From NCBI GenBank assembly GCA_016871015.1, contig VFZX01000001.1:64923-88922 (forward strand): DNA of 24,000 nucleotides, read 5' to 3'. Below the pieces are notes generated by a model that was given only the letters and a program-made list of their open reading frames with translations, had not been told where the DNA came from and ran no database searches. Every line of letters begins with the position of its first letter. Positions within the stretch are counted from its first letter, which is position 1. Of this stretch, positions 17,600 through 19,990 are shown in pieces. The translations under genes and the position numbers were made by a program. Source of the DNA: Acidobacteriota bacterium. Its GTDB lineage: Bacteria > Acidobacteriota > Terriglobia > Bryobacterales > Bryobacteraceae.

Positions 17600-18348
17600 T
17601 GTGCACCGTGACCTGGCAGATCGACGCGGATGGATACGAACTGCTGTGCAACCGGGACGAACGCAAGAGCAGGCGTCCCGCCGCCGGACCTCGCGTCCGG
17701 CTGCACCGCGGCGTTCCGGTGCTGGCGCCAGAGGACGGGCAAGCCGGAGGCGCTTGGATCGCCGTGAATAGTGCCGGGGCCACACTATGCCTGCTCAACG
17801 GCCACGTATCCGCGCTCGTGCGGTCCGCCGGCGTCCGCAGCCGGGGAATGCTGGTGATGGACCTCGCCGCCGCGGACGACGCGGCCAGTGAACTGGCCCG
17901 GACCGATGTCCGCCAGTTTGCGCCATTCACGCTGCTTCTTCTCACGCGGCGCGAAGAGACGGTGTTTCTTTGGGACGGTGCCCGCCTGACGGGCGCGGCG
18001 CACTCCGGCCCACGCTTGCTCACCTCCTCCTCGCTCGACCAGCGACAGGCAGAGCTGTTGCGCACGCGCCAGTTCGCAACGAGCGCCGCGGGCATCCGCG
18101 AGCGGTTGCAATTTCATGCCAGCCATTCGGGTCCGGATCGCGCCTTTACTCCGTGTATGCACCGGACCGACGCGGAGACCGTGAGTTTCAGCATAATCCG
18201 CGTTTCCGCCCGCCAGGCGGAGTTCGGATATAGCCCCGCGGCGCTGTGTCAAGGCGCGCCGCTGGAGTGGACCAACATGCAATTTGCTCTCCGGGAGTCC
18301 GCACATGCCCGTCCTCTTTTGGCTCGCGCTGTCGACCTTCGCGTCTGA
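17599..18348 (+). CDS. NRDE-family (TANGO2/DUF833-like) protein
   Basis: 249 aa. It starts 'MCT', i.e. Cys directly after the initiator Met. The 'NRDE' motif lies at 17650-17661 ('LLCNRDERKSR'), followed by 'GGAWIAVNSAG', 'LLNG' and 'RSRGMLV' blocks characteristic of the family. Its start overlaps the upstream stop (TGATG at 17597-17601). Confidence 0.8.
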   Translation: MCTVTWQIDADGYELLCNRDERKSRRPAAGPRVRLHRGVPVLAPEDGQAGGAWIAVNSAGATLCLLNGHVSALVRSAGVRSRGMLVMDLAAADDAASELARTDVRQFAPFTLLLLTRREETVFLWDGARLTGAAHSGPRLLTSSSLDQRQAELLRTRQFATSAAGIRERLQFHASHSGPDRAFTPCMHRTDAETVSFSIIRVSARQAEFGYSPAALCQGAPLEWTNMQFALRESAHARPLLARAVDLRV

Positions 18349-19990
18349 GGATCTCGCTTGCATCGCCGCGGGGACGCTGATCGCTCAGGGATCAATCGGC
18401 TTCTGGCAAGGTGCGCTCGCCTGCCTCGCCGGAATCTTCGCGGGTGACGTGATGCTGATGATCAGCGGACGCGTACTCGGCGCGCGTGTCGCCGGACGCC
18501 TGGCCCCGCCGGAAAAACTGGCGGAGGCCTCGTCGTGGATTTCACGCCGCGGGCTTGTGGTCGCGCTGGCAAGCCGGTTCACGCCGGGGACACGCCTGGC
18601 GACGTATCTGGCCGCGGGAGTGCTTCGCGTCAATCCATGGAAGTTCAGCGCGTATCTTCTGCTCGCTGCGGCTCTGTGGACTCCGCCGCTGGTCTGGATC
18701 AGTTCGCGGCTTGGCGAACAGGTCCTCCGGGGCACGGTGCGCGCAGCCACGATTTCGGTTGTTGCCGCGGCAGCGCTCTTGCTGGTTGCACGGGTGGCGC
18801 TCGATTTCCGCCGCCGCAGGAGATTCGTTGGACGGCTCCTCCGCGTGATCCGGTGGGAGTTCTGGCCAGCCTGGATCGCCTACCTGCCGCTGATCCCCTA
18901 CCTCCTCTACCTTGCCTGCAAACACCGCTCGCTCACATTGTTTACCGCGGCGAATCCCGGAATCGAATCGGGGGGATTCGTGGGCGAGTCAAAGTCGCGG
19001 ATCCTCTCGCAACTGGACGTCTGTGCCGGCGCGGTGGCGTCTTTCCGCACGTTCGAATCCGCCAGCGATCTGGTGAACCCGTTCGGATTCCCGGTGGTCA
19101 TCAAGCCAGACATCGGAGAGCGTGGGGCAGGCGTCGTCATCGCGCGTTCGGACGAACAACTGCGCGAGGCCGCGGCATCCATGCACGGGCGGTTCATCCT
19201 GCAGCAATACGTGCCGGGGATCGAGTTCGGCGTCTTCTATTACCGTTATCCGGACGAGGAACGCGGGCGGGTCTTCTCGATCACCGCAAAGCACTCGCCC
19301 TCCGTGACAGGGGACGGACACCGGACCGTCGAGGAGTTGATCCTCGCCGACACGCGCGCCGTGTGCCTGGCTGGTGCCTACCTCGCCGCCAACTCAGACA
19401 TCGCCCAAACGACGCCCCCAAACGGCGGGCGGATCCAGCTCGTCGAGATCGGCTCCCACTGCCGCGGGTCAGTCTTTCTGGACGGCACCGCGCTGCTGAC
19501 CCCCGCCATCGAACAGCGCATTGAAGAGATCAGCCGGGCTCATTCCGGATTCTACTTCGGCCGGTACGATGTCCGTGCGGAATCGGTCGAGGCTTTCCAG
19601 CGCGGGGACTTCCTTGTGATCGAGCTGAACGGCGTCAGCTCAGAGGCGACGCACATCTATGATCCACGGGTCCCGGTGTGGCAAGCCTACCGCACGATGT
19701 TCCACCTGTGGCGGACGGCGTTTCAAATCGGCGCTGCCAACAGACGCCTCGGTGCGAGCCCTTGTTGTATCCTCGCATTGAGGAAGACTCTCTATCCGCG
19801 GATTTCTTTTTTGCCTGGTTTCCGCCGTGGCGCCGTTGGCGCTCCACGCGCAAACGACGCAGGGCCTGATGCTAGGCCGCGTGGTGGATTCCGTGACTGG
19901 CGCACCCGTAGCCGGAGTGCAGATCACGGTCACATCGGCCGCGCTCAACGTTCGCGCGCAGGTGAATACGTCACCAGCCGGATACTATAG
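18305..19990 (+). CDS. Fusion protein: N-terminal DedA/VTT membrane domain + C-terminal ATP-grasp (CphA/RimK-like) carboxylate-amine ligase; 3' end uncertain
   Basis: ORF 18284(TTG)..19990. The preferred start is ATG 18305, preceded by GGGAG. The DedA-like part spans ~18305-18810 ('FASEDLACIAAGTLIAQG...GIFAGDVMLMISGRVLG...RFTPGTRLATYLAAG'), followed by extra TM segments. The ATP-grasp part spans ~19016-19753 ('FPVVIKPDIGERGAGVVI', 'LQQYVPGIEFGVFYY', 'SVTGDGHRTVEELI', 'FGRYDVR', 'VIELNGVSSEATHIYDP'). The last ~58 codons are Arg-rich and overlap the next gene, so the true stop is doubtful. Confidence 0.75.
   Translation: MPVLFWLALSTFASEDLACIAAGTLIAQGSIGFWQGALACLAGIFAGDVMLMISGRVLGARVAGRLAPPEKLAEASSWISRRGLVVALASRFTPGTRLATYLAAGVLRVNPWKFSAYLLLAAALWTPPLVWISSRLGEQVLRGTVRAATISVVAAAALLLVARVALDFRRRRRFVGRLLRVIRWEFWPAWIAYLPLIPYLLYLACKHRSLTLFTAANPGIESGGFVGESKSRILSQLDVCAGAVASFRTFESASDLVNPFGFPVVIKPDIGERGAGVVIARSDEQLREAAASMHGRFILQQYVPGIEFGVFYYRYPDEERGRVFSITAKHSPSVTGDGHRTVEELILADTRAVCLAGAYLAANSDIAQTTPPNGGRIQLVEIGSHCRGSVFLDGTALLTPAIEQRIEEISRAHSGFYFGRYDVRAESVEAFQRGDFLVIELNGVSSEATHIYDPRVPVWQAYRTMFHLWRTAFQIGAANRRLGASPCCILALRKTLYPRISFLPGFRRGAVGAPRANDAGPDARPRGGFRDWRTRSRSADHGHIGRAQRSRAGEYVTSRIL

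Follow-up and report, generated by a model that had tools for sequence, protein, structure and literature searches.

Which substrate a ligase acts on when it is built into the same polypeptide as a DedA-type membrane domain, and what that domain contributes to the reaction, are the questions raised by a locus in a 24,000-nucleotide stretch of an Acidobacteriota bacterium genome (GCA_016871015.1, contig VFZX01000001.1, positions 64,923 to 88,922; this whole stretch is called the window below). An open reading frame (ORF) at 18305..19990 of its + strand encodes 561 aa counted from ATG 18305, the start in the genome's own gene call and the origin of the residue numbers used here; the ORF list also offers TTG 18284 (568-aa frame), with the same end at 19990. 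An earlier note on this DNA had described the ORF as a VTT/DedA domain fused to an ATP-grasp ligase that might modify and translocate a membrane-embedded substrate, and had given its span as 18305-19800; the start agrees with our analysis, but the ORF continues past 19800 to 19990. The answer developed below, to which we assign an even chance, is that the protein is a carboxylate-amine ligase facing the cytoplasm, that its substrates are aminolipids of the ornithine-lipid type, and that the DedA domain presents these lipids or flips them.

The protein is a member of both the ATP-grasp superfamily and the VTT/DedA family. Its membrane domain (residues 1-166; 18305..18802, +) was delimited from Pfam, invariant alignment columns, the helices of an AlphaFold2 (AF2) model, hydropathy and charge. 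Pfam VTT_dom (PF09335) matches residues 28-139 of the 568-aa frame with 56 bits against a cut-off of 33.9 and covers profile positions 9-120 of 123. The model and hydropathy give two re-entrant loops and three transmembrane (TM) helices, and the DedA-type helix-break-helix pattern is visible in the model. Among 44 diverse homologues, which also served to build the model and underlie the other invariant positions given here, E15, D16, G43, G47, D48, G55, R91, G95 and R97 are invariant and R56 and P94 are conserved in >=90%; the re-entrant loops hold an invariant SED (E15, D16) and the R91-x2-PG-x-R97 motif, and we take the conserved residues to be equivalent to the essential residues of E. coli YqjA. 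The membrane domain is followed by an Arg-rich juxtamembrane helix, DFRRRRRFVGRLLRVIR, and a Pro/aromatic interfacial segment, WEFWPAWIAYLPLIPYLLYLAC (together 18803..18925, +; from conservation, AF2 model and hydropathy), in which W184, E185, F186, W187 and P195 are invariant. Next comes a reduced pre-ATP-grasp region (18926..19021, +), in which the usual ATP-grasp N-terminal subdomain is shrunk to ~55 residues with an invariant NPGI..GG..GESK motif (N217-P218...G224...E228-S-K230); this region may form the substrate site at the membrane face.

The ATP-grasp catalytic core (19022..19759, +) was identified by Pfam, NCBIfam, alignment to cyanophycin synthetase 2 (CphA2, 7ta5), invariant residues and Foldseek. 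The Pfam RimK and CPSase_L_D2 ATP-grasp profiles give partial matches barely above their cut-offs, and the NCBIfam matches of the ORF, to cyanophycin synthetase and the DedA protein UptA, are weak. The closest solved relatives by sequence are CphA2 and CphA1, in an alignment that takes in the VVIKP Lys strand and the IELNG Mg site. K267 (19103-19105), E307, K329, R420, D422 (19568-19570), E440 (19622-19624) and N442 (19628-19630) are invariant, and all of these except E307 line up with CphA2 motifs. In the AlphaFold model (pLDDT 91.3, pTM 0.70), the C-terminal half matches CphA2, CphA1, GshF and many Ddl structures (Foldseek E 7e-10 to 1e-6), with probability 1.00 for the ATP-grasp fold over 240-290 columns. 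Since its catalytic residues are invariant in homologues, the domain looks competent for catalysis as far as sequence can tell. The central claim of the earlier note, a DedA-type domain and a complete ATP-grasp core in one ORF, is thus borne out by Pfam, the AF2 model, Foldseek and the invariant catalytic residues, and the motifs it quoted lie where it placed them: FWPAWIAYLPLIPYLLYLACKH at 18860-18925, VVIKPDIGERGAGV at 19094-19135 with the Lys codon at 19103, TGDGHRTVEELI at 19307-19342 and IELNG at 19619-19633. Conservation stops near residue 485 (~19760), and the remaining tail of ~77 residues (19760..19990, +), which overlaps the start region of a TonB-dependent receptor gene (GTG 19827), varies among homologues.

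The stretch FWPAWIAYLPLIPYLLYLAC (FWPAW...LAC), which the earlier note took for a further TM segment, would as a TM helix place the ATP-grasp domain outside the cell. It is probably not one: the median number of prolines is 3, the best 19-mer reaches a median hydropathy of 1.29, compared with 1.81 for the preceding TM helix, and the model breaks the segment into two short helices (residues 189-192 and 196-207). The segment is kept in 119 stand-alone ATP-grasp proteins of the Vibrio/Marinomonas type in which the motif was found, most of which have no segment at TM-level hydropathy, and the two that were inspected (L107 and the V. cholerae protein P0372) have no signal peptide. It is preceded by the stretch with eight arginines noted above, which shares its side of the membrane with the other R/K-rich loop (residues 56-97). 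The positive-inside pattern, the non-TM linker and the soluble character of these stand-alone homologues indicate that the ATP-grasp domain faces the cytoplasm, a sidedness based on hydropathy, charge distribution, the secondary structure of the model and domain logic rather than on geometry. A consistent reading of the path begins with re-entrant loop 1 from the periplasmic side, a TM helix running out-to-in and a cytoplasmic amphipathic region, and continues with re-entrant loop 2 from the cytoplasmic side, two TM helices, the cytoplasmic Arg-rich helix, the interfacial segment and the ATP-grasp domain.

The family is large and, in hundreds of species, predominantly fused. A word-indexed protein search returned 4937 significant matches to the ligase, the best 120 of which are single proteins of 476-622 aa that span just 82-96% of the query and differ in the C-terminal tail, and an exhaustive search of 50%-identity representatives gave 4141 matches at E<=0.001 and 1211 at E<=1e-30. 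With one genome scanned per species, relatives occur in at least 590 species of about ten phyla, the taxonomy of carriers being read from record titles: Acidobacteriota (Bryobacterales, Blastocatellia, Thermoanaerobaculia, Terriglobia), Gemmatimonadota, Planctomycetota, Verrucomicrobiota, Chloroflexota, Bacteroidota (Rhodothermia/Balneolaceae), KSB1, Calditrichota, Desulfobacterales and Gammaproteobacteria. Among the best-conserved parts of the protein is the stretch that links the domains (RWEFWPxWxxYxPV ... SLTLFTAANPGIxxGGxxGESK). Two length classes account for most of the 150 best representatives, 63 being short like the window copy, which is an ordinary short-form member of the VTT-ATP-grasp family, and 79 being of ~860 aa with an extra N-terminal alpha/beta-hydrolase domain; a search of this genome for the hydrolase domain found no close orthologue, just generic matches at E 9e-11 or worse. 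The long forms start with a positively charged N-terminus and a hydrophobic anchor before the hydrolase, which on sequence grounds probably places this domain in the periplasm. One protein of 1121 aa (P0255) unites TANGO2 at its extreme N-terminus, hydrolase, VTT and ATP-grasp, and its TANGO2 domain would be cytoplasmic because it precedes the hydrophobic anchor.

The two domains are also found apart. In one acidobacterial family, VTT and ATP-grasp are adjacent genes in different frames (L093, L094), and in Vibrio, Aliivibrio and Marinomonas they are separate genes with a 4-nt overlap, i.e., split and translationally coupled; at three loci the ATP-grasp part stands alone (L091, L092, L095), in the latter two adjoining OlsF or OlsB-OlsA. 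Fusion in most lineages and tight coupling in others constitute Rosetta-stone evidence that the VTT and ATP-grasp parts function together. The stand-alone Vibrio, Aliivibrio and Marinomonas orthologues (P0270-P0389) are named 'D-alanine--D-alanine ligase' in public records; as the window's domain scores 18 bits in the Ddl family, whose cut-off is 404, and the Ddl N-domain is absent, this label is probably a misannotation. Two more distant stand-alone homologues (L113 7890-8957 and L114 7926-8948), at 25-32% identity, keep the EFWP/NP..GG..SK N-terminal motifs, and one of them adjoins a nonribosomal peptide synthetase gene and a YHS gene.

What the ligase may act on is suggested mainly by its neighbours. 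For the gene-context analysis, all ORFs of 82 related loci, 56 of them with full flanks, were clustered and searched with the proteins of the window module, which consists of three overlapping genes with the ligase last. The recurrent order is [ferric-reductase/Rieske][240-aa protein], OlsB-like, OlsA-like, DinB-like, TANGO2-like, (hydrolase-)VTT-ATP-grasp, DoxX. An OlsB/OlsF-type N-acyltransferase is present at 41 of the 56 full-flank loci, as is an OlsA-type acyltransferase (41/56); the DinB-like gene lies upstream of the ligase at 44, and TANGO2 (27/56), the fused hydrolase (35/56), DoxX (23/56) and the Rieske protein (19/56) recur as well. The OlsB-like and OlsA-like neighbours match their families at 1e-38 (134 bits vs 350) and 5e-36, both below the equivalog cut-offs, and a Paludibaculum neighbour matches OlsF at 1e-114. 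The association is also seen in a second, independent sample of 301 evenly chosen Acidobacteriota genomes, of which 38 carry the ligase and 67 a PF13444 (OlsB/OlsF) gene: the latter was found in 37 of the 38 carriers compared with 30 of 263 non-carriers, and within 5 kb of the ligase in 25 of the 38. No P value is attached to this co-occurrence, because related genomes are not independent. Among 401 Pseudomonadota genomes, 10 match the ligase, and all 8 strong matches adjoin Ols genes, seven beside OlsF and one (G301, L071) beside OlsB/OlsA, the two weakest (L113 and L114) being unlinked. In the genome of the window, the OlsB-type gene is split over contig ends (C103:21750-22791 and C169:12940-16890; L117, L118) and flanked by an SDR-SDR-ferric-reductase/Rieske-240aa group on one side and DoxX on the other, and in other Bryobacterales the same OlsB-type group is convergent, 2-6 kb downstream of the ligase. 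The ferric-reductase-TM/Rieske fusion and the 240-aa protein, which has no Pfam match, lie upstream of OlsB at 19/56 loci. A small exported (periplasmic) YHS-domain protein is encoded at 13/82 loci in Bryobacterales, Opitutaceae and Vibrionaceae (e.g., L006 12056-12505, L115 9525-9971).

The counterpart of the gene set in Vibrio cholerae (L115, 6423-11713) comprises, in order, VTT, ATP-grasp, DinB-like, TANGO2-like, YHS and OlsF genes. The ATP-grasp orthologue (P0372, L115 7001-8137) is ~37% identical to the window's domain, the interfacial motif included. Three published primers for VCA0646 and VCA0649 match this locus exactly, one at the OlsF gene start, another inside the DinB-like gene (within its first 51 bp) and the third 258 bp ahead of it, which identifies VCA0649 as the DinB-like gene and VCA0646 as OlsF; VCA0647 is the small exported YHS-domain protein (L115 9525-9971). 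The VTT and ATP-grasp genes lie directly upstream of vca0649, with an 88-nt gap between, and vca0646-0649 is the downstream part of a six-gene set, VCA0651-VCA0646. This downstream part has been called an operon of unknown function activated by HapR, and overexpression of vca0646 and vca0647 was found to cause cell death (bioRxiv 10.1101/2024.09.23.614608). VCA0646 has been described as a low-salinity-induced protein that protects against polymyxin and that makes ornithine lipid on its own in E. coli (PMC12186959). Both studies cover vca0646-0649 and leave aside the two upstream genes, VTT and ATP-grasp (PMC12186959; bioRxiv 10.1101/2024.09.23.614608). Since VCA0646 alone suffices for ornithine lipid, the ligase is dispensable for the basic lipid, and a modification downstream of its synthesis is favoured.

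In the window, the module opens with the DinB-like gene (17036..17599, +; 187 aa, weak Pfam DinB_2 match at E 0.022), whose stop overlaps by 1 nt the start of the TANGO2/NRDE-like gene (17599..18348, +), and the latter overlaps the start of the ligase by 44 nt. The TANGO2-like protein (249 aa, starting Met-Cys) matches Pfam TANGO2 (PF05742) at 1.6e-10, with 42 bits against 22.6. The cluster of its module homologues comprises 38 ORFs; in each of the 33 whose start can be recognised, the protein opens with M/V-C-T..W and contains NRDE, and Cys2 is invariant in an alignment of 27 sequences. Searched by sequence against the PDB, the protein has no match, and its relatives were found by fold: for the AF2 model (pLDDT 89.4), the top Foldseek match is human TANGO2 (8sv7, 2.5e-10), followed by isopenicillin-N acyltransferase, bile-salt hydrolases, NAAA and penicillin V acylase. 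These fold relatives are cysteine N-terminal nucleophile (Cys-Ntn) enzymes whose lipophilic substrates carry an acyl group in amide linkage, which they cleave off or transfer; the bile-salt hydrolases, for their part, cleave glycine and taurine amides. The modelled fold, of the Ntn alpha-beta-beta-alpha type, predicts a Cys-Ntn amidase or acyltransferase, and the suggestion of the earlier note that the NRDE protein is the reverse hydrolase of the ligase is structurally plausible. The fusion in P0255 fits an Ntn activity, because TANGO2 stands there at the N-terminus, as an N-terminal nucleophile requires.

Taken together, these observations, which establish the architecture, the intact catalytic residues, their conservation and the gene linkage, allow a mechanism to be proposed, in which we infer the topology of the ligase, the substrate class, translocation and the roles of the partners. 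The ATP-grasp domain would be held at the cytoplasmic membrane surface by the conserved interfacial segment, where, like the CphA G domain, GshF and Ddl, it would use ATP to phosphorylate a carboxylate and then couple this to an amine. The substrate would be the head group of an acyloxyacyl ornithine-lipid-type aminolipid or its lyso form, supplied by OlsB/OlsA- or OlsF-type enzymes, and the DedA/VTT domain would present this lipid to the ligase, carry the product across to the outer leaflet, or do both. The TANGO2-like Cys-Ntn protein, co-transcribed with the ligase, could act as the matching amidase or transacylase, and in the long relatives the periplasmic alpha/beta-hydrolase might edit the product on the far side. 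An aminolipid head group is the best candidate because the Vibrio OlsF makes ornithine lipid without the ligase, because ornithine lipid has a free alpha-carboxyl, and because an ATP-dependent transfer of an amine to that carboxyl is known, without a gene, from cerilipin. In that reaction taurine is transferred to the ornithine-lipid carboxyl in an ATP-dependent manner by the product of an unknown gene (PMC12971839), and the literature on cerilipin yielded no gene identification. The stricter proposal that the family is the missing ATP-dependent ligase joining an amine or amino acid to the alpha-carboxyl of ornithine-type lipids, with a DedA flippase in the same polypeptide, is a possible answer but a doubtful one. 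As for the lipid substrate imagined in the earlier note, the conserved OlsB/OlsA or OlsF neighbourhood speaks for it, but its polyprenyl-linked version has no support in gene context.

Several points weigh against the aminolipid reading. We know of no characterised ATP-grasp enzyme that acts on a membrane-lipid head group, and the VTT domain is absent from some loci, so that translocation is not essential to the chemistry. The distant homologues at L113 and L114 have no Ols, DinB or TANGO2 neighbours at either locus, which indicates that the family extends beyond the aminolipid setting. There is no Ols gene within ~8 kb at 13 of the 56 full-flank loci, and in the genome of the window itself the module is not adjacent to Ols genes and is followed by a TonB-dependent receptor gene; the 80 context loci, moreover, are best matches and biased to close relatives. 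In V. cholerae, the only ornithine lipid reported is the unmodified one, and under the conditions tested the promoter ahead of VCA0649 showed weak activity (PMC12186959).

The alternatives have to be weighed against the same evidence. That two separate genes were joined only locally, by an assembly error or a frameshift, would be conceivable in a draft assembly of 720 contigs with a probable indel problem directly downstream (the T6 run at 19806-19811), but the same single ORF crosses the junction in hundreds of independent genomes and metagenomes with invariant linker residues, and we reject this explanation as practically without chance. Of the outcomes that the earlier note said would refute its idea, the two open to a check in silico, a periplasmic ATP-grasp domain and a locally frameshifted fusion, thus did not come up. 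A soluble substrate is an unlikely but more serious alternative: the enzyme might act on a head-group precursor (amino acid, dipeptide or amine) or another metabolite, to be followed by OlsB-like acylation or export, with DedA as anchor or exporter. The CphA G domain, GshF and Ddl, its closest relatives in structure, all work on soluble amino acids or peptides, there are stand-alone ATP-grasp forms with no TM helix, and the OlsB-like neighbours, far under the ornithine-specific OlsB cut-off (134 bits vs 350), may take an unusual head group. The ordinary ornithine lipid made by V. cholerae VCA0646 with no ligase (PMC12186959) argues against such a precursor role, and the invariant interfacial segment and the near-universal fusion or tight coupling to a membrane domain point to a membrane-bound substrate.

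If the substrate is indeed membrane-bound, it could also be a lipid of a different kind, namely a phospholipid head group (phosphatidylserine or phosphatidylethanolamine), lipid A or a cell-wall intermediate linked to undecaprenyl phosphate (C55-P), an explanation that we regard as rather unlikely. In its favour, recycling of C55-P is the role of DedA proteins such as UptA, and UptA gives the best NCBIfam match of the membrane domain (1e-08, well below the cut-off); the 13 of 56 loci and the window, which have no adjacent Ols genes, would fit as well. In addition, branch ligases of the ATP-grasp type that act on peptidoglycan precursors are known. However, no gene for cell-wall, lipopolysaccharide or phospholipid synthesis recurs in the 82 neighbourhoods, the recurring partners being OlsB, OlsA, OlsF, DinB, TANGO2, DoxX, ferric-reductase/Rieske and YHS proteins, and an OlsB/OlsF-type enzyme is encoded in 37 of the 38 carrier genomes. 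Very improbable, finally, is a further lipoamino-acid route, in which a fatty acid would be activated as an acyl-phosphate and an amino acid then N-acylated. The membrane-interface location would suit a fatty-acid substrate, and a precedent exists as far as it is cited in a review, in which the acyl-histidine of Legionella is formed via an acyl-phosphate by an ATP-grasp enzyme (PMC11631085); against this route, the co-occurring OlsB and OlsF already perform N-acylation, and the closest folds are amino-acid and peptide ligases.

Two observations concern the surroundings of the module. The ligase ORF extends 164 nt into the gene of the TonB-dependent receptor, whose only start, GTG 19827, provides the receptor with no signal peptide. 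If the T6 run at 19806-19811 were one T shorter, TTG 19778 would give RKTLYPRISFCLVSAVAPLALHA/QTT, a canonical signal peptide, but the ligase frame would then continue into the receptor; an assembly indel or a real defect is likely. On the other side, a divergent operon with aquaporin, GMC oxidoreductase and tandem-glyoxalase genes (13100-16931, -) adjoins the module. This group is found beside the module in ~11 Bryobacterales loci (among them L001, L002, L005-L008, L012, L014, L021 and L038), the GMC gene also in L028 and L042. Its presence near the module in Opitutaceae (L045) means that the neighbourhood may exceed local synteny.

If the ligase does act on aminolipids, it would be the first enzyme known to modify the head groups of bacterial aminolipids at the expense of ATP, an activity that was measured decades ago but has had no gene. 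Next to MprF, it would be a second case, built independently, of a lipid enzyme that works by 'modify and flip', and it would offer a concrete lipid substrate for a DedA-family domain and a genetically tractable bacterial handle on TANGO2. Under the stricter ligase proposal, it would also provide the gene for the cerilipin-type reaction, lacking since the 1970s, and the bacterial TANGO2 would be its lipid-amide hydrolase or transacylase partner, which would give the TANGO2 family a defined biochemical activity. TANGO2 is mutated in a human metabolic disease, and its human function is disputed, with heme trafficking, acyl-CoA binding and an Ntn hydrolase under discussion. The stricter proposal would explain the vca0646-0649 operon of V. 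cholerae as well. The six-gene unit connects two studies of this organism, one on a low-salinity ornithine-lipid synthase and the other on a quorum-sensing-controlled 'cell death' operon.

Compared with known systems, the enzyme superfamilies involved are familiar, and the VTT-ATP-grasp architecture and its context are undescribed in the literature found: searches on DedA with ATP-grasp, OlsB with DedA, and ornithine lipid with ATP-grasp turned up no description of the family or the fusion. Several assignments were considered and rejected. The protein is not a cyanophycin synthetase (TIGR02068, 36.9 bits vs 850 over ~115 residues only, with no M domain), a Ddl (NF011169, 18.2 bits vs 404; query-normalised Foldseek TM-score ~0.3) or a UptA equivalog (35.5 bits vs 250 in NCBIfam); RimK membership fails on scores and missing domains, and no LPG_synthase_TM or other MprF domain is found by Pfam. 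With the G domain of CphA1/CphA2, GshF and Ddl it nevertheless has in common the ATP-grasp fold and the catalytic set of Lys, Arg, Asp, Glu and Asn, and CphA, GshF and Ddl all form an acyl-phosphate on a carboxylate and then join it to an amine. It differs from CphA in lacking the N and M domains and from Ddl in lacking the N-terminal domain, lies far below the family cut-offs, and has instead, unlike CphA, GshF and Ddl, a reduced N-subdomain, the conserved interfacial segment and a DedA domain.

The OlsBA and OlsF pathways of ornithine-lipid synthesis are related to the family through their genes, which are its conserved neighbours, and V. cholerae VCA0651-VCA0646 is the same gene set as the module, with VTT and ATP-grasp as separate genes. 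The cerilipin reaction, an ATP-dependent transfer of an amine to the ornithine alpha-carboxyl, is chemistry of the kind that an ATP-grasp enzyme performs. A further parallel is offered by glutathionylspermidine synthetase/amidase, in which an ATP-grasp amide synthetase is likewise paired with a cysteine amidase reversing the same bond; that system, however, is soluble and not lipid-linked, with a CHAP-type amidase in place of a TANGO2/Ntn one. MprF, to which the earlier note likened the protein, is an aminoacyl-phosphatidylglycerol synthase fused to a flippase, with partner periplasmic hydrolases. The MprF-like logic stands as an analogy only: in both cases a cytoplasmic head-group modifier would be fused to a lipid-translocating domain with a hydrolase outside, the latter being fused in the ~860-aa relatives here. 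MprF, however, uses aminoacyl-tRNA, a GNAT-like synthase and a 14-TM flippase, whereas the window protein would combine ATP, an ATP-grasp ligase and a VTT domain, and its substrate is probably an aminolipid rather than phosphatidylglycerol.

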